This document shows positions 2,318-56,761 of a stretch of 64,000 bases of DNA, one piece after another; position 1 is the first letter of the stretch, and every line of letters starts with the position of its first letter. The notes below the pieces were generated by a model, which was not told the origin of the DNA, ran no database searches, and saw only the letters and a program-made list of their open reading frames with translations. The position numbers and the translations under genes were made by a program. The stretch is from a virus. Lineage: Duplodnaviria; Heunggongvirae; Uroviricota; Caudoviricetes. The stretch is taken from positions 1 to 64,000 of the IMG/VR virus record IMGVR_UViG_3300022555_000017. The stretch is one strand, 5' to 3'.

Positions 2318-2578
2318 TTAAATCAAGTGAAAACATAATTTATTTTTGGCCTTGATAAATCTGCGAGCGTTGGCTATGTGGTTTGTGTCGGGTGGTGGAG
2401 ATTTACTCTGCAATCCTGGTTCTGGTGTGGGAAGATATAATTCCACATTCATTTTCACATTCATTTTCACATTCATTTTCACATTCATTTTCACATTCAT
2501 TTTCACATTCATTTTCACATTCATTTTCACATTCATTTTCACATTCATTTTCACATTCATTTTCACATTCATTTTCAC
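2318..2578 (-). CDS. Hypothetical protein with N-terminal (MNVK)x11 encoded by a 12-bp tandem repeat; could equally be non-coding
   Basis: ORF in the same orientation as its neighbours; every repeat unit carries an in-frame ATG. Confidence 0.25.
   Translation of the reverse strand: MKMNVKMNVKMNVKMNVKMNVKMNVKMNVKMNVKMNVKMNVKMNVELYLPTPEPGLQSKSPPPDTNHIANARRFIKAKNKLCFHLI
2445..2578. repeat. 12-bp tandem repeat (cattttcacatt) in about 11 near-perfect copies
   Basis: Read directly from the sequence. Confidence 0.9.
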
Positions 2579-2597: not shown

Positions 2598-2822
2598 CTA
2601 TATTCTATCTATGTGTGAGCACCAACCAGGATCATATGATCCTGTGCTTACATAGTAATGATAACATGGTCTTTTCACGTTCCAGTCACAGTTATGTGCA
2701 TTACATGGGCGTTTTATTATCCAATCTTTAAATATATTACTGTGAACATCTTGTAGGCTAAAACCATATTCAGCGTTTTGTATGTTTGTAAGTTTTTCTA
2801 AAAAGTTTGTATCGTCTATCAT
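2598..2822 (-). CDS. Cys-rich small paralog family, member 1 (short, 74 aa)
   Basis: Shares the RPCYHYY...GWC...DR motif with 2819-3112, 3815-4108 and 4105-4398. Confidence 0.5.
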   Translation of the reverse strand: MIDDTNFLEKLTNIQNAEYGFSLQDVHSNIFKDWIIKRPCNAHNCDWNVKRPCYHYYVSTGSYDPGWCSHIDRI

Positions 2823-3112
2823 AATGGTTTCTCAAATTCCTCTAAGATGTTTATTATACATATATTTTTAGGCTTAAATCTTTCTTTAAATCCGCACCAG
2901 CCCTTTGTACTATTAACAGAAAGTCTTATATAATGTTGAAAACATGGTCTACCATTTGCAAATGAGCAATAAGATTTTTCAGGATTTCCACATTCAGATT
3001 TTATAAACCATTCATCATACTCACCTTCATTATTTGTAAATGTATACCCTTCTTTTATCATCTGTTCTAAAGTTTTATAGTTGTCACCCATTTGTTCTTG
3101 TTGGCTTATCAT
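2819..3112 (-). CDS. Cys-rich small paralog family, member 2 (97 aa)
   Basis: GYTF...C...C...RPCFQHYI...KGWCGFKERFKPK; ATGA overlap with both neighbours. Confidence 0.55.
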   Translation of the reverse strand: MISQQEQMGDNYKTLEQMIKEGYTFTNNEGEYDEWFIKSECGNPEKSYCSFANGRPCFQHYIRLSVNSTKGWCGFKERFKPKNICIINILEEFEKPL

Positions 3113-3387
3113 ATTATGCTAAATTCCTTTAAAATAGAATATACATTTATTTCTGGTTTCTTAAATCTATCACTTATTCCACAATAACATGCTGGTTCGC
3201 GTTTTCCATCGACTAATATTTTCCAACCCATGCAATCTGTTTGGTGATGCTGAAGAAAACATCGTGCACTACATGGGCTTTCTATATCTATAGACCAGTT
3301 ATCTTTATCACAATAAGTATATCCGGCATTAATATATTGCGTTAATAATTTAAAGTTATCTTCATATTGCTTTTGAATCATATGCAA
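3109..3387 (-). CDS. Cys-rich small paralog family, member 3 (92 aa, divergent)
   Basis: GYTY...C..C...CMGW...CYCGISDRFKKPE. Confidence 0.5.
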   Translation of the reverse strand: MHMIQKQYEDNFKLLTQYINAGYTYCDKDNWSIDIESPCSARCFLQHHQTDCMGWKILVDGKREPACYCGISDRFKKPEINVYSILKEFSII

Positions 3388-3418
3388 ATTCTTCTATAAC
3401 TATATATTTTTTATTTTT

Positions 3419-3643
3419 TTACACTTTTCCATATTCATACCTTTTAACTTCAGTCCATTTAGCTTTAACTGGTGGATGTAACAAAGTATATATAGCATCT
3501 TCTGCTTCTTTTAGAGTTTCAAAAATATATACATCACCTGATAGTTTTTCATAATTTCGCCAGTCCTCAAAAGTTATTGAATTATCGGAATACTTATATT
3601 GTATCATATATTTTCCTTCTTTTTCTAATATTCTATATGTCAT
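3419..3643 (-). CDS. Small protein, family B; paralog of 4909-5139
   Basis: Shares the RILE..Y.IQ...W......TLKEA.DA....P.K.KWT.V pattern with 4909-5139. Confidence 0.45.
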   Translation of the reverse strand: MTYRILEKEGKYMIQYKYSDNSITFEDWRNYEKLSGDVYIFETLKEAEDAIYTLLHPPVKAKWTEVKRYEYGKV

Positions 3644-3818
3644 TATGGTTTCTAAATGCCTCCAATAGTCTTATTACAAATTGATTTTTATATTCATCTG
3701 TGCCTGTTATAACTACCTGTATTTCTATAACTTTTACTAGTTCATGTGTTGTATTCCATCCATTGCCTATTAGTTTATCATTAATCTCACATTTTAGTTC
3801 TTTTATTGTATTACTCAT
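3633..3818 (-). CDS. Hypothetical protein (61 aa)
   Basis: ORF within the operon-like array, overlapping its neighbours. Confidence 0.35.
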   Translation of the reverse strand: MSNTIKELKCEINDKLIGNGWNTTHELVKVIEIQVVITGTDEYKNQFVIRLLEAFRNHNDI

Positions 3819-4108
3819 AGCTTATTAAACTCTCCTTGTATATCTAAGTCTATTTTAGATTCAGGCTTTTTGAATCTGTCTACATATGCACACCAGCCCA
3901 TATCTCTTTGTACATCATTTATACAGTTATAGTAACATGGTCTGATTCTATTCCAACTACATTCTCTGCCTTTTAAATCACATGAGGCTTTTATAGTCCA
4001 TTCATCTATTTTATAATCATCACAATAATCATCAAGTCTAAATTCATATCCTTCATTGTGTAGTTTTAGAAGTTTTATGTAGTTTGCGTCTTTTATTATT
4101 TCATTCAT
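3815..4108 (-). CDS. Cys-rich small paralog family, member 4 (97 aa)
   Basis: GYEF...C...C...RPCYYNCI...MGWCAYVDRFKKPE. Confidence 0.55.
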   Translation of the reverse strand: MNEIIKDANYIKLLKLHNEGYEFRLDDYCDDYKIDEWTIKASCDLKGRECSWNRIRPCYYNCINDVQRDMGWCAYVDRFKKPESKIDLDIQGEFNKL

Positions 4109-4398
4109 AGTTCTACATTAAACTCCTTTAGTATATTAAAGTCTACATATCCTTTTGGCCTTATAAATCTGTCTTTAAATCCGCACCAACCTTTTACATC
4201 ATCTGTAGGTACAAATATGTAATATTTATAGCATGATCTGCCGTTTGCGAAGGCACATATAGATCCATCATCATTATCACACTCATATTTTATAGACCAT
4301 GATTCTAATATATCTTTATCAGCTGTATTATATTTGAATCCATTAGCCATCATTTGCTTTAATATGTCTAAGTTTTTTATTTGCTCTGGGCTTTTCAT
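4105..4398 (-). CDS. Cys-rich small paralog family, member 5 (97 aa)
   Basis: GFKY...C...C...RSCYKYYI...KGWCGFKDRFIRPK. Confidence 0.55.
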   Translation of the reverse strand: MKSPEQIKNLDILKQMMANGFKYNTADKDILESWSIKYECDNDDGSICAFANGRSCYKYYIFVPTDDVKGWCGFKDRFIRPKGYVDFNILKEFNVEL

Positions 4399-4640
4399 AT
4401 TGTTCTAAACAGTTCCCTTTCTATATTTGAAAATCTTATACAATCGTTAGGCTTGAATCTGTCTGTGAATGAGCACTTGCGATCATCTGTAAATATTTTA
4501 GACATAATCTTATAGTGATAACATTGATCATTGCTTGAGCAATAGCATATTGATTGTCTATCTGTCACATACCATGTCGAATCATCATTAAATGTATAGC
4601 CATCTTTCATCATTTGTTGTAACTTTTCTATGTATGTCAT
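4395..4640 (-). CDS. Cys-rich small paralog family, member 6 (81 aa, divergent)
   Basis: GYTF...CYC...CYHYKI...CSFTDRFKPND. Confidence 0.45.
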   Translation of the reverse strand: MTYIEKLQQMMKDGYTFNDDSTWYVTDRQSICYCSSNDQCYHYKIMSKIFTDDRKCSFTDRFKPNDCIRFSNIERELFRTI

Positions 4641-4642
4641 TT

Positions 4643-4909
4643 CTATAATGTAAACAGTTCCTTATCCAATACTAATGTCTTTATACATTTAGGTTCTTTG
4701 AATGAACTGTGATATGAACATTGTGCTTCACCCCTAGATTCTGGAATGATTGAGTGTCTATAACATTGTGATTCATTACAATGACTAGTTAAACAATATT
4801 TTATTGTTGCTTCTTCATCAATATGCCATGAATCATCACCCATAAACGTATAGCCATCTTTTTTACGTCCATCTAAAATTCTTCTATTAAAATCTTCAGA
4901 TGTTACCAT
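4643..4909 (-). CDS. Cys-rich small paralog family, member 7 (88 aa, divergent)
   Basis: GYTF...C..HC...CYRHSI...CSYHSSFKEPK. Confidence 0.45.
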   Translation of the reverse strand: MVTSEDFNRRILDGRKKDGYTFMGDDSWHIDEEATIKYCLTSHCNESQCYRHSIIPESRGEAQCSYHSSFKEPKCIKTLVLDKELFTL

Positions 4910-5139
4910 TATCTTTCCTCAACAACTGTCCATTTGATGGGTTTATTTCTTTTTATTATCAAGTCTAGTGCGTCTTGTGCTTCTTTAAGATATGCATAAT
5001 ATGTTATATAATATGTTATATAATATGTCGGCTCACCATACATTGCTTTATATGCACCTTCATCAGTCCAGAAAAATAACAAAAATCTTCTTTGTATTTT
5101 ATATCGGTTATCATATTCTAATATACGCCATTTCTTCAT
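4909..5139 (-). CDS. Small protein, family B; paralog of 3419-3643; contains a YYITYYITYY stretch from a 12-bp micro-repeat
   Basis: Protein similarity to 3419-3643; ataatatgttat occurs about 2.7 times at 4997-5029. Confidence 0.45.
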   Translation of the reverse strand: MKKWRILEYDNRYKIQRRFLLFFWTDEGAYKAMYGEPTYYITYYITYYAYLKEAQDALDLIIKRNKPIKWTVVEER

Positions 5140-5214
5140 ATTAAAAATAGTCCTTTCTTATTTTATTAGATATGATTATAACAGAAATGTAGATAAAAGT
5201 CAAGAAGAATATTT

Positions 5215-5595
5215 TTAGTTTAAGATGGTGAATTGATCTAGTATGTCGATATGAAATGATTCAGCTTTTATAACATTTTCATTATATTCATCTAAGAACA
5301 TAGTACATTCTGAAATAAATATATCAGCTTGTTCTTCAGTATCAAAGTTTAGAATGTTTAGTTTGTGTATGTCTAGTTCTATTACATATCTATTATCAGG
5401 TCTGTAAAATCTATGGTCATCTGGCATCACAACATCACATGGTTGAAAAGTTATAGTATTATCTTTGTAGGCCCAACTCCAACTATGTTCTAAGTATGTT
5501 AGGTGTGGGTCAACATCTGTAACTCTAACTTCTACTTGCCACATTTTAAACATGTCCAGATATTCTTTAATGAACTCTATTTGTAATGGTATCAT
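5215..5595 (-). CDS. Hypothetical protein (126 aa)
   Basis: ORF overlapping the upstream gene (ATGA). Confidence 0.45.
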   Translation of the reverse strand: MIPLQIEFIKEYLDMFKMWQVEVRVTDVDPHLTYLEHSWSWAYKDNTITFQPCDVVMPDDHRFYRPDNRYVIELDIHKLNILNFDTEEQADIFISECTMFLDEYNENVIKAESFHIDILDQFTILN

Positions 5596-6227
5596 ATATC
5601 ATCCTTTGTGAATTCATCTAAGATATATAGCATTTTCTCAAGTTCATTAGTTTCTTTAAGTTTACCTAATATACTTTCAAAATCAAAGTTAGACCATTTA
5701 TGATGTTCGATTCTTTCACTTTCTGGAAAGTATCTAGGTGCAAAAAAGCTTGGTATAATATATGGCTCGTTACTTGGATAGTTATTAGTAGGTAAATATT
5801 GTCTTTGCCAGTTTGATATAGGCATTTGGTATTGCATTGCACTTGATGGTGTAGTATAAGTTGCTGCTGCTGTTGATGTAGTTGCATAACTACTCCAGTT
5901 ATATCCTGATGGTATTGTAGTTGATGTATAATTTAATGTGCTCATATTTCTTTCATAATGTAATGCAAGTTCATTTAACCGTTCTTGTAGTATAGTAGAA
6001 TTATCTCTAGTCATATTATGCGATAGTGCAACAAATTTATATGTCAGTTTTTTTGTTAGTTCAAGCATTATTTCATTAGTTAAAGATTTTGTTATATAAT
6101 ATCTGTGCAATATACCTTCATACATTTCAGTAAGGTCATATTCATCATGGCATTTAAGCTTTAACATAGAACTAAATTCATTTATAAATCCAAGTTCATA
6201 TACTGATAAGTTAGACATTTTTAGCAT
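5592..6227 (-). CDS. Hypothetical protein (211 aa) with an S/T/Y-rich low-complexity centre
   Basis: Long ORF in the minus-strand block. Confidence 0.45.
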   Translation of the reverse strand: MLKMSNLSVYELGFINEFSSMLKLKCHDEYDLTEMYEGILHRYYITKSLTNEIMLELTKKLTYKFVALSHNMTRDNSTILQERLNELALHYERNMSTLNYTSTTIPSGYNWSSYATTSTAAATYTTPSSAMQYQMPISNWQRQYLPTNNYPSNEPYIIPSFFAPRYFPESERIEHHKWSNFDFESILGKLKETNELEKMLYILDEFTKDDI

Positions 6228-6418
6228 TTATAAGTATTTATTTCCCCGTTAATCTCTGCAATGTCACGCTCTAAATCTCTCTGAACAAATCTATAAGTTA
6301 CATTAGATATATCTGTAGTTGGTTTAGTTGAGTTAGCTAAAAAGTTAGATATGTTTGTATGTTCAGCAGTTGTATGTTCTAACATTTCATATAACACTTC
6401 AAGTTTAATACATTTCAT
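6221..6418 (-). CDS. Hypothetical protein (65 aa), first gene of the minus-strand block
   Basis: ORF adjacent to the divergent intergenic region 6419-6691. Confidence 0.3.
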   Translation of the reverse strand: MKCIKLEVLYEMLEHTTAEHTNISNFLANSTKPTTDISNVTYRFVQRDLERDIAEINGEINTYKC

Positions 6419-6691
6419 TTACTTATCTCCTATACTTTTTATTTCATTATAACACACACATTTCAAAATGTAAACATAAACACATAGAAGGATTTTATAT
6501 ATGTTAGGGGTGAAAGATAAGTCAATCAAACCATAGTCTAAAGTTCTGTGTCTGTAAGGTAAAATAGTAGTCATTTTATCATATAGAATAAGAGAAATAC
6601 AACAGTTTTTATTAGAAATGTATAGAATCAAAATATACAATTCATATGAAATAGTATAAATAATAATATATAATTTTAAGGAGTATATTAG

Positions 6692-8098
6692 ATGTCACGA
6701 TTGGATAACTATTTGATTGAAAAGATTTCTAAAATAGAGTATAATGATATTCTGAATGATAAGTCTGTTGTAATAGGAGCGGAATTTGAGTTCTATCAGA
6801 CTAGTCATAAAGATATGATTGGTTCTGGCAATAATGATGAAGATTGGGCTGATTTCTATTATTTTACAGAGCAAATGACAAAGTATGAAGCTGATATGGA
6901 AGATTATGAAGAAGCTGAAATGGCGTATGGAAATTATCAAAGTGAATATGATGATTGGGTAGAAGCAGGTAAAACATATGAAGAGCCAGAAGAACCAGAT
7001 GCGCCGAATAAGCCAGAGCCACCCGAAATACCAGAATATGTATTAAATGTTGAGAATACAAGAGAAATAAATAATATGATAGCGAGAGGTTATATACCTG
7101 ATCCTACTTATTATACAAATATGGAAAATGATAACCAAGAAGTAATAAACAGAATTGAATCTGAAGTAGGTGATTTGATAAGTGATACTGATAACTGGGA
7201 GTTTAAAGGCGATTCATCATTAGAAACAGAAGGTATATCAAGTCTTGGTATAGAGATTGCTACATCACCAATGACATTAGCTGAGTTTCTTGATGTAGTA
7301 CCTAAAGTATTTGATTATATAGATTATACTGATGATACTTGTGGATTTCATGTGTCTATTAGTTTTGAAGGCATGAACTTAAAGGATGATTTTGATTCAT
7401 TTAAGATAGCCTTATTCATGGAAGAAGAATATGTATATAAGTATTTTAAGTCCAGAAAGGGCAATCAGTATGCTAAATCAGCATTTAGTGATGTTATTAA
7501 AAAGGGAAACTTCAAGCCTGATATACTAAAAAATCTTATAGATAAGAAGAAGGCTAACAGATCAATAACAAGTAGTCACTACATGGGTATAAACATAGAA
7601 AATATAAGTGAATATGACACAGACAGTAGAGTAGAGTTTAGATACTTAGGCAATAAGGACTATCATAAGAAATGGCCTGAGATTAAGAATATCATTGTAA
7701 GATATGTATACTTTATGAAGTTAGCTTGTGATCCTAACTATAAAAAGAAAGAATACTTAACAAAGATACAGAGAATGATAAACAAGATAGAGTTTGTAAG
7801 ATTAGGCTCATTTATGGATGGTATTAAATCAATAATAGATGGCGGTAAATTTATAGATTGGAAGATAGATCAAATCAATAGTATGCTTGAAGGAGAGGGT
7901 GTAGCAAAAGATTTAGCTGAGAAGTATTTTAGTGATTTTGAATATGATACACTTCAAGATTATAATAGTGAAATGCTAAACGCATATCTTACAAAGGCGT
8001 ATAGAAAAATGCAACAAGATTATAAAATGATTGGTTCATCAATTAAACTAACAAGTCGTGAAAAAACTTTAATAGATGCATATGTACTAGGAGTGTAA
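6692..8098 (+). CDS. Large hypothetical protein, paralog A; possible glutamine-synthetase-like amidoligase fold (inference)
   Basis: taaggag RBS. Motifs VVIGAEFEF, EIATSP, CGFHVSIS and VEFRYLG..KKWPEI are shared with 8103-9377; acidic low-complexity insert. Confidence 0.5.
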   Translation: MSRLDNYLIEKISKIEYNDILNDKSVVIGAEFEFYQTSHKDMIGSGNNDEDWADFYYFTEQMTKYEADMEDYEEAEMAYGNYQSEYDDWVEAGKTYEEPEEPDAPNKPEPPEIPEYVLNVENTREINNMIARGYIPDPTYYTNMENDNQEVINRIESEVGDLISDTDNWEFKGDSSLETEGISSLGIEIATSPMTLAEFLDVVPKVFDYIDYTDDTCGFHVSISFEGMNLKDDFDSFKIALFMEEEYVYKYFKSRKGNQYAKSAFSDVIKKGNFKPDILKNLIDKKKANRSITSSHYMGINIENISEYDTDSRVEFRYLGNKDYHKKWPEIKNIIVRYVYFMKLACDPNYKKKEYLTKIQRMINKIEFVRLGSFMDGIKSIIDGGKFIDWKIDQINSMLEGEGVAKDLAEKYFSDFEYDTLQDYNSEMLNAYLTKAYRKMQQDYKMIGSSIKLTSREKTLIDAYVLGV

Positions 8099-8102
8099 GA
8101 TA

Positions 8103-9377
8103 ATGATACTATTAGAAAAGATAAGTAAGCAAGAGTTTGATGACGCACTTAAAAATCCAAGAATACGCATCGGAACGGAGTTTGAATTCATGGTGCCGTC
8201 ATTTATAGAAGCAAATGATGAAAAAATCAAATCAACTGAGAGTAGACAAGAACTTGAAGGTGAACTATCACAATATGATGAGGACTTAAATGTATGGGCT
8301 GAAGCTGGAGAAGTAGGGCCACCGCCAAAAATACCGCAAATGATTAAAGACCTTGATCCAACCCTGCAAGATGGTGATGAAATAGATGCTGAAGATTTTG
8401 AAGAGTTCTTTGCAGGTGCTAAACAAGACAAGGATGCATTATTTAAATCTCTAGTTAAAAACAATCTTAAAATGGATGAGTTCATGCCATCCAGCCAGTA
8501 TTGGGTTACAACAAACGAAAAGGGTAAGAAGGCAGATAAATGGGTGGTAAAGCCTGATGGTAGCCTTGGTATAGGTGGAGTTGAAGTTGTTACACCAGTA
8601 ATGCCATTGGCTGATTTCATGGATATAGTACCTAAGTTCTTTAGTCACATTGATAAGTATGGTGATACAAATGATTATTGTGGATTTCATATTGGCCTAA
8701 GTATAGATGGTATTGGTGATTTGTCTAAAGTGTTGGATGTTATCAAGTTAGCCCTATTTACTGATGAGGGATATATCTATAAGGCATTTAAGGAAAGAGA
8801 ATATAATAAGTATGCCAAGTCTGTACATTCAGCAATCAAATCAGGTGAAATAGTTGGTGGTGCATTAGAGCAGGTAATAGACATTGGTAAAGTGCAGAAA
8901 GAATACTCAAATGATCACATGATGGCCATTAATATAGAGCACTTAACAAACTATGGTAAGAATAAGAATAAATATATAGAGTTCAGATACTTAGGAGCAG
9001 GTAAGTATCATCAGAAATGGCCAGAGATAAGACGAATACTTGCAATGTATTCATACGCCTTGAGTATGGCTTGTGACCCTGAGTATAGAAAGAAAGAATA
9101 CTTGTTGAGATTGAATAGAGTTATAAACAAAGTTGAGTTATTTACAAATCTATATAACTATGTTATAATGAACAATGATGTAGGAAGGTCAGAGAAGGAA
9201 ATTGCTGATTTATTACGAATAGATATAAATAAAGATGAGTACTTAAAAAAGGCTAAGACACTAGCCAAATTTGTGAATCTATCTCCTATGGACATTGCTG
9301 ATATGTTAGAGAATAATGCCAATATGAATAAACAAACAGGTGAAGAGATAATGAATCTATACAAGGAGATAAGATAA
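8103..9377 (+). CDS. Large hypothetical protein, paralog B of 6692-8098; same amidoligase-like motifs
   Basis: IRIGTEFEF, EVVTPV, CGFHIGLS, IEFRYLG..QKWPEI, MACDPEYRKKEYL. Confidence 0.5.
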   Translation: MILLEKISKQEFDDALKNPRIRIGTEFEFMVPSFIEANDEKIKSTESRQELEGELSQYDEDLNVWAEAGEVGPPPKIPQMIKDLDPTLQDGDEIDAEDFEEFFAGAKQDKDALFKSLVKNNLKMDEFMPSSQYWVTTNEKGKKADKWVVKPDGSLGIGGVEVVTPVMPLADFMDIVPKFFSHIDKYGDTNDYCGFHIGLSIDGIGDLSKVLDVIKLALFTDEGYIYKAFKEREYNKYAKSVHSAIKSGEIVGGALEQVIDIGKVQKEYSNDHMMAINIEHLTNYGKNKNKYIEFRYLGAGKYHQKWPEIRRILAMYSYALSMACDPEYRKKEYLLRLNRVINKVELFTNLYNYVIMNNDVGRSEKEIADLLRIDINKDEYLKKAKTLAKFVNLSPMDIADMLENNANMNKQTGEEIMNLYKEIR

Positions 9378-9718: not shown

Positions 9719-10600
9719 ATGATAGAACTTAAATATAGTTTAAATGATATTAAGGAATATGTTGAAAGTTTTAGATATAAACTTTTATCTACTGAATATA
9801 TCGGTATTATGTCAAAATTAAAATTAAAATGCCCTGAAGGCCACATATTTGAAACAAGATATAATAATTTTAAAAACATTAATAGTAGATGCCCTGAATG
9901 TAAGGGTAATAGAAAACATACATTAGAAAAAGTTAAAGAACATATTGAAAGTTTTGATTATAAACTATTATCAACAGAATATAGAAATGCCGATACAAAA
10001 CTTGAATTAAAATGTCCTTCTGGCCATATTTTTGATATAAAGTATCGTAGCTTTCAACAAGGGCAAAGATGTATGGAATGCTCAGGTAAAAGAAAACATA
10101 CATTAGATGAAGTTAAAGAATATATTGGGGTGTATGATTATAAAGTTTTATCTACTGAATATATTAATTCATATACAAAATTAAAGTTGCAATGCCCTGA
10201 AGGTCATATATTTAATATGATGTATCGTAATTTTCAACAAGGAGTTAGATGTCCTGAATGTTGTAATAAAAAAGGATGGTCTAAACCAGAAAAGGAAATA
10301 GCAAAATATGTTAAAACAATATATTCCGACAAAGTTATAGAAAATGATAGAACACAAATTAAAAACTATTGGACAAGTGCAGGTTTAGAATTAGATATAT
10401 GGCTACCTGAAGTAAAAAAAGCAATAGAGTTTAATGGTTCTTATTGGCATTCAAATAACAAAACAAAATGGTATGATGAAATGAAGAAAAGGCAGTGTAT
10501 GAAAAATGAAATTGATTTATTAGTTATAAATGAACAAGATTGGTATGATGATAAAATGTGCCAACTAAATAAAATAAATGTTTTTATAGGAGAAATGTAA
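9719..10600 (+). CDS. Zn-ribbon-repeat (x3) plus Vsr/DUF559-like nuclease family protein; putative homing endonuclease
   Basis: Three ~45-aa repeats (Y(I/V)ESF.YKLLSTEY...L.CP.GH.F...FQQG.RC.EC) and a C-terminal PEKEIA...ENDRTQ...LELDIWLPE...AIEFNGSYWH...QDWYDDK domain. Confidence 0.7.
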   Translation: MIELKYSLNDIKEYVESFRYKLLSTEYIGIMSKLKLKCPEGHIFETRYNNFKNINSRCPECKGNRKHTLEKVKEHIESFDYKLLSTEYRNADTKLELKCPSGHIFDIKYRSFQQGQRCMECSGKRKHTLDEVKEYIGVYDYKVLSTEYINSYTKLKLQCPEGHIFNMMYRNFQQGVRCPECCNKKGWSKPEKEIAKYVKTIYSDKVIENDRTQIKNYWTSAGLELDIWLPEVKKAIEFNGSYWHSNNKTKWYDEMKKRQCMKNEIDLLVINEQDWYDDKMCQLNKINVFIGEM

Positions 10601-12774: not shown

Positions 12775-13668
12775 ATGTGGTATAAATATAGGATGAGTAA
12801 AAAATATACAATAGAAGAAATAAAACTATACATTGAAAGTTTTGGATATACATTATTATCTACTGAATATAATAAAGCACTTTCTAAATTAGACCTTCAA
12901 TGTCCTGAAGGTCATTTATTTAAAATGAGATATAATAATTTTAAGAATCAAAGTCAACGATGCTCTATTTGTTTTGGTACACCTAAGAAAACAATAGAAG
13001 AAGTTAGAAATTATATTGAAAGTTTTAATTATAACCTTCTTTCTACTGTGTATATAAATAATAAAGAAAAATTAGTATTGCAATGCCCTGAAGGTCATAT
13101 AATAAAAATACGATTGGATAGTTTTAGTCATGGAACTAGATGTTCAATATGTTCTGGTAATGATAAAAATTCTATTGAAAAAATTAAAAAGCATATAGAA
13201 AGTTTTGATTATAAACTATTATCAACAGAGTATATAAATAATAAATCAAAAATAAAATTACAATGTAGTAAAAATCATACATATCAAGCTTCTTATCATA
13301 GATTTCAACAAGGTGATAGATGCCCTTTATGTGCAAATAGTGAAGGTAAATCAAAACCCGAAAAAGAAATTGTTGAACATATTAAAATAAATTACTATAA
13401 AGATATAATAGAAAATGATAGAACACAAGTTAAAAACTTTTGGTCTAATCGTAATTTGGAGCTGGATATATTTTTACCTGATATATCTAAAGCAATAGAA
13501 TTTAATGGTATATATTGGCATAAAAATAATAATGTAAAATGGAAAGATGAAATGAAAAGAAAACAATGTATTCAAAAAGGTATTGAGTTATTAGTTATAC
13601 AAGAGCAAGATTGGTATAATGATAAGTTATGTTGTTTAAATAAAATAAATGAGTTAATAGGTGCTTAA
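12775..13668 (+). CDS. Zn-ribbon-repeat (x3) plus Vsr/DUF559-like nuclease family protein (probable start ATG 12793)
   Basis: Family motifs; stop overlaps the next gene start (TAATGAATGA). Confidence 0.7.
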   Translation: MWYKYRMSKKYTIEEIKLYIESFGYTLLSTEYNKALSKLDLQCPEGHLFKMRYNNFKNQSQRCSICFGTPKKTIEEVRNYIESFNYNLLSTVYINNKEKLVLQCPEGHIIKIRLDSFSHGTRCSICSGNDKNSIEKIKKHIESFDYKLLSTEYINNKSKIKLQCSKNHTYQASYHRFQQGDRCPLCANSEGKSKPEKEIVEHIKINYYKDIIENDRTQVKNFWSNRNLELDIFLPDISKAIEFNGIYWHKNNNVKWKDEMKRKQCIQKGIELLVIQEQDWYNDKLCCLNKINELIGA

Positions 13669-17847: not shown

Positions 17848-18735
17848 ATGAAAAAATTAAATTATATTGATGTTAAAAATAATATAGAAAATTTTGGATA
17901 TAAGTTATTATCTGAAAAATATATAAATGCTTTGACTAAACTAGAAATGCAATGTCCTGAAGGTCACGATTTTGAGATAAAATATAATAATTTTCAACAA
18001 GGTCAAAGATGCTCTATTTGTTTTGGTACGCCTAAGAAAATATTAAATGAAATTAAAGAGTATATAGAAAGTTTTAATTATAAATTACTTTCTACTGAAT
18101 ATAAAGATAATAGAACTAAACTAGAATTACAATGTTCTGAAGGCCATATATTTAAAATGGCATATGGTAGTTTTAAAAATCAAAATTATAGATGCCCGGA
18201 ATGTGCTGGTAATAGAAAATTTATAATAGAAGATATTAAAGAATATATTGAAAGTTTTGACTATAAACTTTTATCAACTGAATATGTAAATATATTTTCC
18301 AAGTTAAAAATACAATGTTTAAAAGGTCATATATACGCTGTAACGTATAATAATTTTAAGAATCATAATAGAAGATGCCCAGAATGTTCAAATAGTAAAA
18401 TGTTTTCTAAACCAGAAAAGGAAATTGCTGAATATGTTAAAGAGAATTATACTGGTGATGTTGTAGAAAATGACAGAACACAAATAGTAAATTATTGGAC
18501 AGGTGTTGGATTAGAACTTGATGTTTGGATGCCAGAAGCAAGAAAAGCAATAGAATTTAATGGTTCTTATTGGCATAATAATGAAAATGCTAAATGGCAT
18601 GATGAAATAAAAAAGAAACAATGCATACAAAAGAAAATAGATTTATTAGTTATACAAGAGCAGGATTGGTATAATGATAAGGTATGTTGTTTAAATAAAA
18701 TAAATAATTTAGTTTACAATACGGTTGGAATATAG
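17848..18735 (+). CDS. Zn-ribbon-repeat (x3) plus Vsr/DUF559-like nuclease family protein
   Basis: Family motifs. Confidence 0.7.
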   Translation: MKKLNYIDVKNNIENFGYKLLSEKYINALTKLEMQCPEGHDFEIKYNNFQQGQRCSICFGTPKKILNEIKEYIESFNYKLLSTEYKDNRTKLELQCSEGHIFKMAYGSFKNQNYRCPECAGNRKFIIEDIKEYIESFDYKLLSTEYVNIFSKLKIQCLKGHIYAVTYNNFKNHNRRCPECSNSKMFSKPEKEIAEYVKENYTGDVVENDRTQIVNYWTGVGLELDVWMPEARKAIEFNGSYWHNNENAKWHDEIKKKQCIQKKIDLLVIQEQDWYNDKVCCLNKINNLVYNTVGI

Positions 18736-19730: not shown

Positions 19731-20664
19731 ATGGCAAGTGGTAAAGTAAAGTGGTTTAATGACAGTAAGGGTTAATAAAGAATAAGATAAATAATCAAAG
19801 CATGAAATGGCAAAATAAATATAATATTGATATTGAAGAAGTACATACTAAAAACATGGAAGGATATAGTTTAACAGACTTATCTTCCATGTTTAATGTA
19901 CCTAAAACAACATTGAATAGATATTTAAAGAAAGCAGGATATAGAATACTAATGAATAGGAAGATTTTACCATATTCATATTATATCACAGTAACTGAAA
20001 AGGAAATTGATTACAATTATAAGAGAAATAATACTGGACGGTGGAAAAGAAATTTGATATTTCATTACGGCCATAAATGTATTATTTGTGAATATGATAA
20101 AATTGTTGAAGCACATCATATTAAACCTCTTTCAGATGGTGGTAAAACAAGTGTTGAAAATGGTATTTTATTATGCCCGAATTGTCATGCAGAAGTTCAT
20201 GCTGGATTATTAAACTTAACCGAGGCCCTTATAAAATTGGGTGAATTGCTGGAACATTCTTTAGAGAACAATCAGCAGCCAAGTCATGAAAGTAGGTATA
20301 TACCGAGAGTCATGGAAGGTTCAACGACTAATTCCCGAGCGAAAGCAGTAATGGAAACAAGAGCGCCCAAATCTCGTAGTAATAGAATAGGAAAAGATAT
20401 GTATATTTTAAATAATCCTTCCTTACGAGATATGATATAGTCTGATCTGCATATAAAAAATAAGTTGCAGAGTTATGGGATAAAGAGCCCATAAGATAAC
20501 AAATGTTCGGCTTCATTGAGAAGGCAGATGGTGGTGATGTGTTTGTTCATTTCAGTTCAATTCAAGGTGATGGATTCAAGTCACTTCAAGAAGGTGCGAG
20601 TGTAAGTTTTGATATTGAACAGGGTGCTAAAGGCCCATCAGCAGTTAATGTAAGAACTATCTAA
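19731..20664 (+). CDS. cspA: Cold-shock protein CspA-like, interrupted: exon 1 19731-19772 ([14 protein letters not shown]), exon 2 20506-20664 ([16 protein letters not shown]...); spliced product 66 aa
   Basis: Both halves are canonical CSD sequence (KWFN..KGFGFI, VFVHFS). aaaaggag RBS before 19731. Exon 1 ends in T and the intervening sequence ends in G, as in group I introns. Confidence 0.6.
19773..20505 (+). mobile_element. Putative group I intron (~733 nt) within cspA carrying an HNH homing endonuclease ORF
   Basis: In-frame stop immediately after exon 1, U at the 5' splice site, G at the 3' end, internal HNH ORF. Intron core structure (P3-P9) not verified. Confidence 0.5.
19802..20440 (+). 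CDS. HNH endonuclease (intron-encoded)
   Basis: CIICEY...[34 protein letters not shown] motif. Confidence 0.75.
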   Translation: MKWQNKYNIDIEEVHTKNMEGYSLTDLSSMFNVPKTTLNRYLKKAGYRILMNRKILPYSYYITVTEKEIDYNYKRNNTGRWKRNLIFHYGHKCIICEYDKIVEAHHIKPLSDGGKTSVENGILLCPNCHAEVHAGLLNLTEALIKLGELLEHSLENNQQPSHESRYIPRVMEGSTTNSRAKAVMETRAPKSRSNRIGKDMYILNNPSLRDMI

Positions 20665-22926: not shown

Positions 22927-23805
22927 ATGAATAAAAAATATACTATAGAAAATATTAAAAAAATAATGTTAGATTTTAGTTATGAACTATTATCTAATGA
23001 ATATAAAAATAATACATCAAAACTTAAAATAAAATGTGATAACAACCATATTTTTATTACTGATATGAAGCATTTTAAAAGAGGTCATAAATGCCCTGAA
23101 TGTTCTAAAAATAAAAAACACACTATTGAAAATATTAAAGAATATATAGAAAGTCTTAACTATAAACTTTTATCATCAGAATACATTAATACTCTTACAA
23201 AATTAACATTACAATGCCCTGAAGGCCATATTTATTTATCCACATATAGTAATTTTCAACAAGGAAAAAGATGTCCTGTTTGTTTTGGAACACCTAAGAA
23301 AACATTAGAAAATGTTAGTAAATATATTGAAATGTTTGGATATAAAGTTCTATCAACTGAATATATAACTAATAATACAAAATTAAAATTATCATGCCCC
23401 AATAATCATACTTTTAAGATGAGTTATAGTAGTTTTCATACAGGACAAAGATGCCCATTATGCTCTTATATAAATAGTGGTTCAATACCTGAAAAGGAAA
23501 TAGCTGAGTATACTAAAGCAATATATTCTGGTGAAGTTATAGAAAATGATAGAACACAAGTTAAAAACTATTTTACAAACTATCCATTGGAACTAGACAT
23601 ATATATACCAAAATCATCTAAAGCAATTGAATTTAACGGAAAATATTGGCATAATAATGACTATATAAAGTGGAAAGATGAAATGAAACGAAAACAATGT
23701 ATGAAAAGAGGAATTGATTTATTAGTGATAGATGAAAAGGAATGGTGTAAAAATAAGGATCAGATTTTTAAAAATATTAAGATATTTTTAAAGGAGATTA
23801 GATAA
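22927..23805 (+). CDS. Zn-ribbon-repeat (x3) plus Vsr/DUF559-like nuclease family protein
   Basis: Family motifs. Confidence 0.7.
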   Translation: MNKKYTIENIKKIMLDFSYELLSNEYKNNTSKLKIKCDNNHIFITDMKHFKRGHKCPECSKNKKHTIENIKEYIESLNYKLLSSEYINTLTKLTLQCPEGHIYLSTYSNFQQGKRCPVCFGTPKKTLENVSKYIEMFGYKVLSTEYITNNTKLKLSCPNNHTFKMSYSSFHTGQRCPLCSYINSGSIPEKEIAEYTKAIYSGEVIENDRTQVKNYFTNYPLELDIYIPKSSKAIEFNGKYWHNNDYIKWKDEMKRKQCMKRGIDLLVIDEKEWCKNKDQIFKNIKIFLKEIR

Positions 23806-29663: not shown

Positions 29664-30542
29664 ATGATTGGTAAAAAATTAAATTATATAGAAGTTAAAC
29701 AATATATTGAAAGTTTTGATTATAAACTTTTATCAACAAATTATATAAATGCTTTAACAAAATTAGAATTACAATGTCCGAAAGATCATATATATTTTGG
29801 TGTATATGGTAATTTTCAACAAGGTATTAGATGCCCGGAATGCTCAGGTCTAAAAAGGAAAACTTTAAGAGGCGTAAAAGAATATATTGAAAGTTTTGGG
29901 TATGAATTATTATCCACTGAATATAAAAATAGTAAAGAAAAATTAGAATTACAATGTCCTAAAAAACATATATTTAAAATGAGTTATGTTTGTTTTCAAA
30001 GAGGGCAAAGATGCCCCGAATGCGATAAATCTAAAAAACTTACATTAAATAAAGTTAAACAATATATAGAAAATTTTGAATATAAACTTTTATCAACAGA
30101 GTATGTAAATAGTAAAACTAAATTAGAACTACAATGCCCTGAAAGTCATATTTATAATGTAATATACAATTCATTTCAGCAAGGTCAAAGATGCCCTAGT
30201 TGTGCTTCAGTTAAAGGATGGTCTAAACCTGAAAAGGAAATTGCTGAATATATTAAACAAAACTATATTGGTGAAGTTATGGAAAATGATAGAACACAAG
30301 TAAAGAACTATTGGTCGGGTAAAAATTTAGAATTAGACATATTTTTACCTGAATTAAATAAAGCTGTTGAATATAATGGTGAGTACTGGCATAATAATGA
30401 TAAATCAAGATGGTATGATGAAATGAAAAAGAAGCAATGTAAACAAAAAAATATAAATTTATTGGTTATACAAGAACAAGATTGGTATGATAATAAACCA
30501 TACTGTCTTAACAAAATAAATAACTTCATTGTAAATTTATGA
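29664..30542 (+). CDS. Zn-ribbon-repeat (x3) plus Vsr/DUF559-like nuclease family protein
   Basis: Family motifs; directly followed by another member. Confidence 0.7.
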   Translation: MIGKKLNYIEVKQYIESFDYKLLSTNYINALTKLELQCPKDHIYFGVYGNFQQGIRCPECSGLKRKTLRGVKEYIESFGYELLSTEYKNSKEKLELQCPKKHIFKMSYVCFQRGQRCPECDKSKKLTLNKVKQYIENFEYKLLSTEYVNSKTKLELQCPESHIYNVIYNSFQQGQRCPSCASVKGWSKPEKEIAEYIKQNYIGEVMENDRTQVKNYWSGKNLELDIFLPELNKAVEYNGEYWHNNDKSRWYDEMKKKQCKQKNINLLVIQEQDWYDNKPYCLNKINNFIVNL

Positions 30543-30597
30543 GATTGACTTTTCATCATGGTTGTGGTATAATAAATTAAAAAGTAAGAAAAGGAAT

Positions 30598-31479
30598 ATG
30601 CAAAAATTATCATATAATGAAATTAGAAAATATATAGAAAGTTTTAATTATAAATGGCTATCTGGTGAATATAAAGATAATAAATCCAAATTAAATATTC
30701 AATGCCCAGAAGAGCATATTTACAAGGCATCATATAATAGTTTTCATAGAGGACGCAGATGCCCTAAATGTTTTGGAACTCATAAAAAATCTAATGAAGA
30801 AGTCAAAAGTTATATAGAAAGTTTCAACTATAAACTTCTATCTACTGAATACAAAAATAGTAAAGAAAAATTAGAACTACAATGCCCAAAAGGTCATATT
30901 TATTTTGCAAGTTATGATGATTTTCAACAAGAACATAGATGCCCTGAATGTGCAAATAAAATGAAGGGAGATAGTCAACGATTAGAAATTAATAATGTGA
31001 AAGAATATATAGAGGGTTTTGGATATAAACTTTTATCAACAGAATATAAAAATGTTTTATCTAATTTGAGATTGGAATGTTTAAATGGTCATAAATTTTT
31101 AATGAGATATAATAGTTTTCAACAGGGACAACGATGCCCTAAATGTTCGTATATTGACAAAAGTTCAAAACCTGAAAAAGAAATTGCTAAATATGTTAAA
31201 ACTATTTATTCTGGTAAAATGATTGAAAACGACAGGACACAAGTAAAAAACTATTGGTCTAGTCGTAATTTAGAACTTGATATATTTTTACCTGAATTAT
31301 CTAAAGCAATTGAATTTAATGGTATATATTGGCATTCAAATGATAAAACGATGTGGTGTGATGAAATGAAGAAAAAACAATGCATACAAAAGGGTATTGA
31401 TTTATTTGTAATAGATGAAAAACATTGGCGTGATGATAAGGTATGTTGTTTAAGTAATATAACGAAATTTATAATGTAG
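30598..31479 (+). CDS. Zn-ribbon-repeat (x3) plus Vsr/DUF559-like nuclease family protein (ORF opens at 30562)
   Basis: Family motifs; tandem with 29664-30542. Confidence 0.7.
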   Translation: MQKLSYNEIRKYIESFNYKWLSGEYKDNKSKLNIQCPEEHIYKASYNSFHRGRRCPKCFGTHKKSNEEVKSYIESFNYKLLSTEYKNSKEKLELQCPKGHIYFASYDDFQQEHRCPECANKMKGDSQRLEINNVKEYIEGFGYKLLSTEYKNVLSNLRLECLNGHKFLMRYNSFQQGQRCPKCSYIDKSSKPEKEIAKYVKTIYSGKMIENDRTQVKNYWSSRNLELDIFLPELSKAIEFNGIYWHSNDKTMWCDEMKKKQCIQKGIDLFVIDEKHWRDDKVCCLSNITKFIM

Positions 31480-51125: not shown

Positions 51126-52037
51126 ATGTTAAATAAAAAATATAATTTAAATACAGTTAGAGAGTATATAGAAAGTTTTAGTTATAAACTTTTATCAACT
51201 GAATATAAAGATAACAAATCTAAATTATTATTACAATGTCCTAAAAATCATATAATAAAATTATCACTTCATAATTTTAAAGAAAATAGATGTTCTATAT
51301 GTTCAAATAAAAAACCTGATTTATATGAAATTAGTAACTATGTTGAAAGTTTCAATTATAAAGTTATATCTACAGAATATACAAATAAAAAAAATAAATT
51401 AAAAATACAATGTTCTGAAGGGCATATTTATGAAAGTAGTTATAACAGTTTTAAAAATGGTATTAGATGCCACTTATGTAAAGATAAAAAACTAAAAAAG
51501 GAAAAATTACACACTAATATTTTATATAATAAAAAGAAAACTTTAAAAGAAGTTAAAGAATATATTGAAAGTTTTGGTTATAATCTTTTATTTACAGAAT
51601 ATATAAATGCTAGGTCTAAATTAAAGTTAAAATGCCCTTCTGAGCATATATATAATGTAAAATGGCCAGATTTTAAAAACAATCATAGATGTCCTGAATG
51701 TGCATCGGTTAAGGGATGGTCTAAGCCAGAAAAAGAAATAGCTGAATATGTTAAAACAATATATTTAAATAATATTATAGAAAATGATAGAACACAAATA
51801 AAGAACTATTGGACAAATAAAAATTTAGAACTGGATATTTGGCTACCAGAAATAAGAAAAGCAATAGAGTTTAATGGTTCTTATTGGCATAATAATGATA
51901 AGTCAAGATGGTATGATGAAATAAAAAAGAAACAATGCATACAAAAAGGTATTGATTTATTAGTTATAAATGAACAAGATTGGTATGATGATAAAAAACT
52001 TCAATTGAATAATATTGGAGGATTTATCAATGTTTGA
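51126..52037 (+). CDS. Zn-ribbon-repeat (x3) plus Vsr/DUF559-like nuclease family protein
   Basis: Family motifs; located at the 3' end of the glycan cluster. Confidence 0.7.
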   Translation: MLNKKYNLNTVREYIESFSYKLLSTEYKDNKSKLLLQCPKNHIIKLSLHNFKENRCSICSNKKPDLYEISNYVESFNYKVISTEYTNKKNKLKIQCSEGHIYESSYNSFKNGIRCHLCKDKKLKKEKLHTNILYNKKKTLKEVKEYIESFGYNLLFTEYINARSKLKLKCPSEHIYNVKWPDFKNNHRCPECASVKGWSKPEKEIAEYVKTIYLNNIIENDRTQIKNYWTNKNLELDIWLPEIRKAIEFNGSYWHNNDKSRWYDEIKKKQCIQKGIDLLVINEQDWYDDKKLQLNNIGGFINV

Positions 52038-55264: not shown

Positions 55265-56761
55265 TTATATTCTGGCCCATTTAACAATCAAATCGTTGAC
55301 TTCTGTAAACCAACCATTCTTTTCCTCATGCTCATATTCATAAATAAAATCTATAACATGATCCGAAAAGCCATTTATTAATGTCCAGTTTTTATCATAT
55401 GTTAGACCTGAATCATATGTTGCAATGTTCATAATATAACCCTTACTATTATTAGAAGGTAATGCTCTACCATCTGTTGATTGCTCATCTGTTATAACAA
55501 TCACTCTATCATACTCTTCTTTACTCTTTAAATCGTTCAAAGAAGTTCTTAAAGCTGTTCCCATGTTAGGCTGATTATTAATAATAGAATCAGCTAATTC
55601 AAAACCATGATAGTTATTTCCTACAAGGGCTAATCTATCAGAAAAGGTATATACAACACATTCATCGCACACTTCTCTTAAAAGAATAGCAAGTGCTGTT
55701 GCGGTATCAATCCTTTTTGTTTCAGACTTCCTTGCAGTAGCCCAAGTCATTGAACCAGATACATCAACAAGTAATGCAGTTTTACCAGATAACTTGTTAA
55801 ATGTTCTAACACACTTTAACATCATATCTTCAAGTTCTTTCTTAATATCTACATCTGAAATATTCTTATATGCAGTATAGAATCTGAAAGGGAAAAGTTT
55901 TTCAACATTAGCCTTATGTAAAGCATCTATAATCGTATACTTATCAAGACCAGCTTCTATCATACCTCTTATATTTTTGATCAAAGCCATAGCACCTAAC
56001 TTATTATTCTTAATCAAATCCTCAAAAACATCTTTCTTATTTTCACCGGAAGATAAACGCACTTCCCAAGTATCAGGGATTTCTAATTTAGAATATTCAC
56101 CATAAAATGCCTTGATTGGAAATCCTGCTTTTGTTACTGTTGGAAAGAAATCTTTATTTACCAACTGAGCAAACATCTTTCCTTTTGTCATATTTTCAGG
56201 TTTAGCGTGGCACAAAAATGCCGCATCCCTCAACTGAACAGAGCCAGGGCCACTATCATTCTTATTCCATTTAGCTATCTGATACTCATTGAACTTATTG
56301 AAAGCCTTTGAAATACCTTTCTTTACCTGAGCAGACAAAGAAGAATCTTTATCACTACCAGACCAATATAGTTTTAAGAACTCAATTATTTCATCAGGTC
56401 TTTGAATAATCTGATTTAAAGTATTACTTAAAATAGAAGGGGTATATGTCTTAGTATTACGAGCAAGCTCACGAATTAAAAGCAATGGTATTTTTCTTAA
56501 ATGGAACTTATCTCTAGCTTCTATCGCAAGAGAGGCAACCATATAAGGATCGCATTGTTTAACCAATTCTTTTATTCTATTTGTACAAGATGCGCCTGAT
56601 TCATAAAATGAATTTTCATTTAATAGGCAAGATAATACTGAACGTCTTAACTGAGCTTCTGAACTTAAATTTTCAAACATAACATATTCTCCTTGAGTAA
56701 AGATTTGAGGAACAAATTGCATTGAGTGTTTTTTCATTTTGTAGTTGAAGTAACTCAACAC
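55265..56761 (-). CDS. von Willebrand factor A (vWA) domain protein, possibly CobT-like
   Basis: MIDAS motif LLVDVSGSMTW with downstream T and D residues; large N-terminal extension. Confidence 0.5.
   Translation of the reverse strand: MLSYFNYKMKKHSMQFVPQIFTQGEYVMFENLSSEAQLRRSVLSCLLNENSFYESGASCTNRIKELVKQCDPYMVASLAIEARDKFHLRKIPLLLIRELARNTKTYTPSILSNTLNQIIQRPDEIIEFLKLYWSGSDKDSSLSAQVKKGISKAFNKFNEYQIAKWNKNDSGPGSVQLRDAAFLCHAKPENMTKGKMFAQLVNKDFFPTVTKAGFPIKAFYGEYSKLEIPDTWEVRLSSGENKKDVFEDLIKNNKLGAMALIKNIRGMIEAGLDKYTIIDALHKANVEKLFPFRFYTAYKNISDVDIKKELEDMMLKCVRTFNKLSGKTALLVDVSGSMTWATARKSETKRIDTATALAILLREVCDECVVYTFSDRLALVGNNYHGFELADSIINNQPNMGTALRTSLNDLKSKEEYDRVIVITDEQSTDGRALPSNNSKGYIMNIATYDSGLTYDKNWTLINGFSDHVIDFIYEYEHEEKNGWFTEVNDLIVKWARI

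Follow-up and report, generated by a model that had tools for sequence, protein, structure and literature searches.

The 64,000-nucleotide stretch of viral DNA analysed here (positions 1 to 64,000 of IMG/VR record IMGVR_UViG_3300022555_000017, referred to as the window) carries on its minus strand a block of thirteen genes built largely around one paralogous family, family A, which is present in exactly seven tandem copies. Family A is a lineage-specific orphan family that keeps a four-cysteine core while its loops vary, and its intact members end in a short C-terminal peptide—the tail—that also closes several unrelated proteins encoded nearby. Judging from their sequence features, we tentatively read the family A products as binder proteins that are made early, stabilised by metal and diversifying, and that share a single docking partner; we give this reading a probability of roughly 40%.

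Seven tandem paralogs confined to one phage lineage

The family A genes, all on the minus strand, are A1 (2598-2822, 74 aa), A2 (2819-3112, 97 aa), A3 (3109-3381, 90 aa), A4 (3815-4108, 97 aa), A5 (4105-4398, 97 aa), A6 (4395-4640, 81 aa) and A7 (4643-4909, 88 aa). The start of A3 is most likely the ATG at 3381, as called in other assemblies, rather than the TTG at 3387. Interleaved with these genes are two members of a second family, B1 (3419-3643, 74 aa) and B2 (4909-5139, 76 aa), and all nine open reading frames (ORFs) had been picked out, with positions and strand that agree with the ORF list, by an earlier note on this DNA. That note did not name gene C (3633-3818, 61 aa), an unrelated ORF within the array. 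The block continues upstream, on the same strand, with genes D (5215-5595, 126 aa), E (5592-6227, 211 aa) and F (6221-6418, 65 aa), the last of which is the first gene of the block and is 100% conserved in all strains. Six junctions within the block are ATGA overlaps (E/D, A6/A5, A5/A4, A4/C, A3/A2 and A2/A1). ATGA coupling had been described as running through the whole family A series; between two A genes it holds for A6/A5, A5/A4, A3/A2 and A2/A1, and fails at A7/A6. The non-ATGA junctions comprise a 2-nt gap (A7/A6), overlaps of 1 nt (B2/A7) and 11 nt (C/B1), and a 37-nt gap (B1/A3).

Aligned over their full length, the seven copies are 20-44% identical, and one Trp column and three Cys columns are invariant. 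BLASTP recovered all 21 family A pairs at E < 10, the weakest being A1/A3 (E 3.6) and A1/A7 (E 1.8), and a leave-one-out profile built from six copies recovered the seventh at E values between 1e-9 and 1e-22, against 0.03-0.7 for the best non-family ORF in the six-frame set of the 64-kb window. The seven copies are thus true paralogs, as had been claimed, and their similarity is not a matter of composition. The second pair is likewise homologous (B1/B2, 28-31% identity, BLASTP E 3e-4), and family B has a third member, B3, in relatives (z = 4.7 to B1 and 9.9 to B2). The notion of a repeatedly duplicated A+B cassette fared less well: relatives also interleave A and B genes, without a regular A-B unit and in an order that differs from one relative to the next. 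That the ORFs are real genes is supported by orthologs in diverged relatives, which stay in frame and for which the ratio of nonsynonymous to synonymous substitution rates (dN/dS) is mostly below 1.

Searches with family A against Pfam-A, PHROGs v4, NCBIfam, PADLOC and PDB sequences gave no match better than E 0.03, all of them far below curated cut-offs, and no fold match was found. The DNA of the block showed no similarity to any of 50,697 phage records. At larger scale, a word-seeded search of 5.8 billion clusters returned 10 family A proteins and an exhaustive profile search of 1.84 billion representative proteins returned 13 matches—all of them from the same phage or from relatives represented solely by short contigs of lake metagenomes. 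Two scans each of IMG/VR and of JGI metagenome contigs found no related loci, and for family B and gene E, too, searches turned up homologs only in the same phage lineage. Family A is therefore a lineage-specific orphan.

Conserved cysteines and a predicted fold

All seven window copies share the pattern C-x(1-7)-C-x(4-8)-C-x(14-15)-C (in A7, C39, C44, C49 and C64). An alignment of 17 members that includes the relatives shows the same four-cysteine pattern with a wider last spacing (10-17); three of the Cys columns are invariant and the fourth Cys is always present, at a shifting position. Members without the usual first Cys carry an extra one 2-4 residues after the second, so that every protein has at least four. 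The earlier note had counted five to seven cysteines per copy; the actual number is four to six. Across copies, the G-Y-x-F motif, the Trp strand, the Cys positions and the DRFKxP motif are kept and the loops vary: column entropy in the 17-member alignment is 1.5-1.9 bits in the strands, DRFKxP and the tail, and rises to 2.3-3.05 bits, with most of the gaps, in the insert after G-Y-x-F, the Cys loops, the loop between strands 3 and 4 and the linker that precedes the tail.

An AlphaFold2 model of A5, made from a 15-sequence alignment, reached a mean predicted local distance difference test score of 80, and all five models (77-80) agree. The predicted order is a helix (residues 4-18), four to five strands (among them 22-24, 35-39, 56-62 and 71-74) and a short, weakly predicted helix (89-93). 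By eye, the N-terminal helix reads as amphipathic rather than as a signal peptide or membrane span. Family A proteins are hydrophilic (grand average of hydropathy, -0.44 to -0.81) with isoelectric points of 5.1-6.5, and the best reading of these sequences is that they are soluble, cytoplasmic and mildly acidic proteins.

The four conserved cysteines fit either a metal site or two disulfides, in line with the zinc-binding or disulfide-stabilised character first suggested for these proteins. For a cytoplasmic protein, a putative structural Zn(Cys)4 site would be the simplest reading. The window copies do have the four conserved potential metal ligands of a zinc finger, and they lack the two CxxC/CxxH knuckles of zinc ribbons and treble-clef fingers; a single CxxC occurs only in a few relatives (P0013 and P0017).

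A C-terminal tail shared with unrelated neighbours

Intact family A proteins end in N-I-L-K-E-F-N-V-E-L or a variant of it, with the Phe present in 16 of 17 members and a consensus of (I/L)-(I/L)-x-(E/Q)-F followed by three to five residues. This peptide is not specific to family A, a point overlooked in the earlier note. A regular-expression scan was followed by a search with a hidden Markov model (HMM) built from family A tails alone; among 201 ORF tails, that of D scored E 8e-4 and that of the gene E protein 0.026, with the next ORF at 0.58. D is very acidic (isoelectric point of 4.3) and ends in ..HIDILDQFTILN, and the gene E protein, with a Y/T/S/N-rich middle, ends in ..LYILDEFTKDDI; the end of the gene C product gave no match, and F is without the motif. 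In relatives, the tail closes a 121-aa family termed G121 (FIIDKELFTLND, LFILPKELFNIL), the D protein of L013, a 79-aa protein of L011 and B3 (YIVIEEFTI), with HMM scores between E 0.003 and 0.09, and a protein of L010 also matches. Once the tail is removed, the bodies of A, B, D, the gene E protein and the 121-aa family show no mutual similarity (z < 3.3), and the N-termini of these families are unlike each other. The gene E protein and its 79-aa paralog in L011 (L011 383-622) both have long, low-complexity middles rich in Y, T, S, G and N before the tail, which are possibly disordered.

We next consider the level at which the tail is constrained. In the window array, the tail codons contain GGA(G/A) 12-18 nt upstream of the following ATG, whereas the Shine-Dalgarno-like motif lies mostly 4-9 nt from the start in the 50 large window genes tested. 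D and gene E carry the tail without GGA—D being followed by an intergenic gap, and E having a separate Shine-Dalgarno motif—and IIDQF tails in relatives keep the peptide without GGA. Moreover, the conserved I, L, E and F residues are encoded by varying synonymous codons, and no conserved RNA structure was found at 16 gene junctions. Together, these observations argue that the constraint acts mainly on the peptide. An ordinary Shine-Dalgarno role for the tail was rejected as the main explanation, given the distance of the GGA and the existence of GGA-free tails.

One relative documents a tail-like sequence in motion. Gene E of L013 has received a 41-nt insertion (L013 1085-1130; compare window 5940-5950) that combines 23 nt exactly matching the 5' region of A2 (3075-3097) with tail-like codons and splits the gene into two ATGA-coupled ORFs, the first ending in NIIGEFMKEI. 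This event may show how tails spread; it was seen in a single assembly, and an assembly chimera is possible.

Selection, strain variation and gene turnover

Eight strain contigs are more than 99% identical over the block, with A5, A6, A7, B1, C and F identical in every strain. The differences cluster in three short loop patches of A4 (on a basis that includes P0011), the A3 loop, D, the B2 repeat and an amidoligase-like gene (8103-9377) beyond the block. The B2 repeat is a 12-nt unit (4996-5028) that encodes YYIT; L006 and L007 have one unit fewer, giving a protein of 72 rather than 76 aa. A single loop codon of A3 exists in four allelic states: intact, TAG with a 6-nt insertion (L004/L008), the same insertion with CAG (P0006, an intact frame) and a +2 frameshift (L012/L014). 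Long ORFs throughout the window are uninterrupted under the standard code, which gives no support to stop-codon reassignment as the reason for the TAG of A3 alleles and the one following A1.

A1, which had been taken for a short member of the family, is instead a broken copy. Its reading frame is cut after ..WCSHIDR by an insertion of about 240 nt, so that the four-cysteine core is kept and the FKxP motif and tail are gone. Downstream of the insertion lies a probable 3' remnant of the gene (RRFIKAKNK..; 2318-2365, minus strand), which reads RRFIKAKNKLCFHLI up to a stop codon and aligns with a remnant in L012 (..YIDRFIEPKNKCIINILEEFNKL). Inside the insertion is a perfect 12-bp tandem repeat in 11.2 copies (2444-2578; unit CACATTCATTTT), which is highly unstable between strains (L017 10946-11215; L018 11130-11261): L017 has one 12-bp unit plus three copies of a neighbouring 11-mer, and the 197-kb contig behind L018 ends within the repeat. 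The remainder of the insertion (2366-2443) is unusually G+C-rich and has no stable fold (z = +1.2), and a search of the insertion and of the whole window against Rfam returned nothing relevant to the array.

More diverged relatives differ in both copy number and gene order. L009 holds E, an A7-like gene, P0015, an A3-like and an A6-like gene; L011 holds E, its 79-aa tail-bearing paralog, and A3-like, A6-like and A7-like genes, so that homologs of gene E lie upstream of the array in both. In L012-L014, the array consists of an A fragment, B1, a start-less A copy, an A6-like gene, B3, a frameshifted A3, A2, a further-truncated A1 and a C-terminal remnant; L012 thus contains a 5'-truncated (start-less) A copy plus two fragments, and A1 is broken in both lineages. 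The variable copy number and order, together with the broken alleles, bear out the view of an expanded, rapidly turning-over family, and the history of the locus is one of birth-and-death turnover. For A6, which has orthologs in L009, L011 and L012, dN/dS is 0.16-0.29, and for A7 and A3 it is 0.40-0.96, values that are rough because dS is near saturation in several pairs. Between the paralogs, at 20-44% identity, synonymous sites are fully saturated. Selection on family A is purifying to relaxed. Because several copies occur as pseudogenes in natural strains, single copies are dispensable.

Expression context

The thirteen genes from F to A1 have two strong promoter-like sites. The first (6446-6474, minus strand), a sigma-70-like TTTACA-17-TATAAT with TG that matches 11 of 12 consensus positions and has an extended -10, lies upstream of F in the intergenic region 6419-6691; the second (5175-5203, minus strand; TTGACT-17-TATAAT with TG) precedes B2 and the array. 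These two best extended -10 sites occupy the only intergenic gaps upstream of the block, and it is their placement that is suggestive, since the total of promoter-like sites equals the expectation from shuffled sequence. A third sigma-70-like site, a near-consensus match, was detected at 2326-2298 (minus strand). No terminator-like hairpins were found between block genes; one at 1635-1668 ends the minus-strand block, after two further genes (1979-2266 and 1711-1989). The T4 late promoter motif TATAAATA does not occur upstream of the block and is not enriched anywhere in the window. We infer from this arrangement that the block is probably transcribed early, by host RNA polymerase.

Phage genome, environment and neighbouring genes

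The phage identity of the DNA is supported by the presence in the window of T4-type gp46/gp47, UvsX and a gp32-like single-stranded DNA-binding protein, together with a primase and NrdD/NrdG. The gp46 homolog is 26-29% identical to gp46 of T4-like cyanophages and of enterobacterial T4-like phages, which places the phage as a distant T4-like virus. Window G+C is 29-30%. Contigs of the phage reach 189-197 kb and come from assemblies labelled BUCK21-1 and GROS21-1, plus JGI 3300009502; the phage is large, uncultured and of freshwater origin. Going by its record name, BUCK21-1 may belong to the data set on oxygen-stratified lakes of Buck et al. 2021 (PMC8121793). The genes for the phage polymerase, the clamp, gp55 and gp33 lie outside the 64-kb window and its 10-kb extensions; found in the extensions were RCC1-repeat proteins, small ORFs, a DUF932 protein and a D12-class (Dam-type) methyltransferase. 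Past the right end of the window (L016 1-8390), three proteins of 918-974 aa are encoded upstream of the gp47-like gene, two of them with RCC1/WD40-like repeats.

Within the window, other genes encode glycosyltransferases, a Ro60/TROVE protein, two amidoligase-like paralogs and many HNH endonuclease-like proteins. The amidoligase-like genes (6692-8098 and 8103-9377, plus strand) stand in tandem next to the block and are divergently transcribed from it; the second varies among strains. Ten dispersed paralogs (9719-52037), mostly of about 290 aa, match HNH homing-endonuclease PHROGs (e.g., 9719-10600, 12775-13668, 17848-18735, 22927-23805, 29664-30542, 30562-31479 and 51126-52037), and this family contains internal 180-bp repeats (9905-10242 and 29672-30196). 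A group I intron at 20163-20464 (plus strand; Rfam RF00028, 60.8 bits, E 6e-13) overlaps the end of an HNH-like ORF (19802-20440). The Ro60/TROVE protein, which also has a vWA domain, is encoded at 55265-56761 (minus strand); proteins of this type often act with a small non-coding RNA, and no Rfam family of that kind reached threshold in the window. Finally, a perfect 44-bp tandem repeat in 2.2 copies (887-985) overlaps the start of an ORF (933-1313); near-consensus promoters occur several times in this region, on both strands.

Comparison with known phage systems

It is well established that T4-like phages have clusters of small orphan early genes which differ from one relative to another (Arbiol et al. 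2010, PMC2839356; PMC4122927), and in the hyperplastic regions of T4-type phages such ORFan cassettes are shuffled through PeSL elements, with a promoter and a stem-loop terminator for each cassette (PMC2839356; PMC4122927). Like those regions, the block described here holds small, non-essential-looking genes of obscure role behind sigma-70-like early promoters, and close relatives differ by insertion, deletion, replacement and re-ordering. It departs from them in two respects: its genes are joined by ATGA or near overlaps instead of being separated as promoter-terminator cassettes, and it consists mostly of one paralogous family, whereas T4 hyperplastic regions are made of unrelated ORFans.

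The tail invites comparison with the hydrophobic-acidic C-terminal clamp-binding tails of T4 gp43, gp55 and gp33, which are similar to one another and stand behind variable linkers (Geiduschek and Kassavetis 2010, PMC2988020). In both cases, unrelated proteins of one phage end in a similar short hydrophobic-acidic peptide, located 1-5 residues from the C-terminus and preceded by a variable linker. The sequences themselves differ: the T4 tails read SLDFLFG and SLDFLYEAND, and the tail here is (I/L)(I/L)x(E/Q)F rather than SLDFL(F/Y). When the T4 tails were compared with the tail HMM, no match was obtained (gp55, E 68; gp43, not reported). The carriers differ as well, being replication and late-transcription factors in T4 and small, putatively early proteins here. 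We regard the likeness as a resemblance in design, not as membership of the clamp-tail class.

Three further systems share some of these traits. The T4 internal protein locus (IPI, IPII and IPIII) is polymorphic and combines a common capsid-targeting peptide with divergent bodies, and at least one member, IPI, is an anti-restriction protein; the locus described here is likewise a polymorphic set of small proteins with one short terminal peptide and divergent bodies. The T4 tag is N-terminal and is cleaved by the prohead protease at (L/I)xE, whereas the motif here is C-terminal. Host-takeover modules of large lytic phages, such as genes 37-60 of Bacillus phage SPO1, resemble the block in their dense small early genes behind strong host-type promoters, and differ from it in that their genes are mostly unrelated to each other. 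Poxvirus gene accordions also change copy number, as a route to adaptation, and do so through recent, near-identical copies; the copies here are old, at 20-44% identity.

Proposed function and alternative explanations

We propose that this distant T4-like freshwater phage may have, in the locus, a hyperplastic block of early genes that host RNA polymerase transcribes right after infection. Each family A protein, of some 80-97 aa, would consist of an N-terminal helix and a small beta sheet with four cysteines that most likely bind zinc, and a flexible linker would connect this core to the hydrophobic-acidic C-terminal tail. The seven copies would have arisen by tandem duplication, divergence and decay. 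The variable body of each protein would recognise a different host or defence target, and the common tail would dock on one partner that D, the gene E protein and other neighbours also use, with an arms race with the host driving gain, loss and loop variation. Because no library returned a match, the suggestion of a host-takeover or anti-defence role is drawn from genomic context. In a bolder form, which we consider possible and on balance unlikely, the tail would be an "address tag" that marks an early cohort (A, D, E, the 121-aa family and B3) for a single hub, with family A as a new metal-stabilised fold offering interchangeable target-recognition modules and the whole as an adaptor arsenal assembled by cassette duplication and tail capture. 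Such a hub could be the sliding clamp, RNA polymerase, a protease or chaperone, or a phage-built compartment.

Several observations weigh against the proposal of early binder proteins. No family A homolog has a known role, the Cys spacing is without the paired CxxC knuckles of classical zinc sites, and two disulfides or another cofactor are possible in place of zinc. The promoters are consensus matches in a genome of 30% G+C, where the site total equals that of shuffled sequence. Several ortholog pairs are near-saturated in dS, and with several copies pseudogenised in natural strains, some copies may be decaying. Since the array tail codons contain GGA(G/A), some constraint at the nucleotide level is possible, and the tail could have spread by ectopic recombination without any common function, for which the L013 transfer offers an example.

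The last two points lead to an explanation that needs no common partner: the common 3' end could be a nucleic-acid feature, either a ribosome-binding or translational-coupling element or a PeSL-like recombination tract. The K/E/G/R-E codons of the window array tails all contain GGA(G/A) before the next start, six block junctions are ATGA overlaps, gene order is shuffled among relatives, and gene E of L013 did acquire a 41-nt piece of A2 5' and tail-like sequence. We nevertheless consider this rather improbable, given a GGA 12-18 nt from the ATG where 4-9 nt is typical of the window, the GGA-free tails of D and gene E, the IIDQF relatives that preserve the peptide without GGA, the varying synonymous codons at conserved I, L, E and F, and 16 junctions devoid of conserved RNA structure. 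Somewhat more doubtful is the idea of packaged and injected internal proteins similar to IPI-IPIII, in which the terminal peptide would direct the proteins to the capsid or bind the scaffold, and the bodies would counteract host defences as the phage enters. A T4-like phage, a locus hypervariable among relatives and several unrelated small neighbours ending in one short peptide are all compatible with it; the C-terminal location of the motif (against the N-terminal, cleaved sequence of T4), the sigma-70-like intergenic promoters with no TATAAATA upstream and the absence of adjacent structural genes argue otherwise.

The array might also consist largely of evolutionary debris, one accessory gene having been duplicated in tandem recently and its copies decaying neutrally without diversified function, as the truncated A1, the nonsense and frameshift alleles of A3, the start-less copy and two fragments in L012 and dN/dS values of 0.75-0.96 for some A7 and A3 pairs could indicate. 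This account is unlikely in our judgement: six of the seven copies are intact, with four Cys, Trp, DRFKxP and tail; identities of only 20-44% imply that the duplications are old; A6 orthologs evolve at a dN/dS of 0.16-0.29; and orthologous subfamilies persist in diverged relatives. The least probable of the alternatives, to which we attach very little weight, is that family A consists of small redox or iron-sulfur proteins acting as auxiliary metabolic genes for an anaerobic host, an idea prompted by the four conserved cysteines, the anaerobic NrdD/NrdG of the phage and the oxygen-stratified lake origin implied by record names (PMC8121793). Most copies are without CxxC pairs, there is no sequence or fold similarity to the rubredoxin, ferredoxin or thioredoxin families, and a metabolic cofactor protein would not be expected to exist in seven diverging copies that have variable loops and a docking-like tail.

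Significance

Three features set the locus apart from such known clusters: a seven-copy tandem family with a conserved four-cysteine core and without detectable fold relatives, tight translational coupling in place of promoter-terminator cassettes, and a C-terminal peptide common to unrelated families. Host-takeover and anti-defence factors come mainly from small early phage proteins, most of which are orphans; the locus offers a compact candidate for a new fold, with a four-cysteine site, natural loop diversity and seven paralogs plus orthologs. It also preserves a natural history in which genes arose, were shuffled and died, with one copy knocked out on independent occasions, and as such is useful for understanding the turnover of accessory arsenals. 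Moreover, a tail carried by at least four or five unrelated families provides a direct handle on a putative common partner—and, if it is a true docking tag, similar tags in other phages could serve to group orphan early proteins by pathway.

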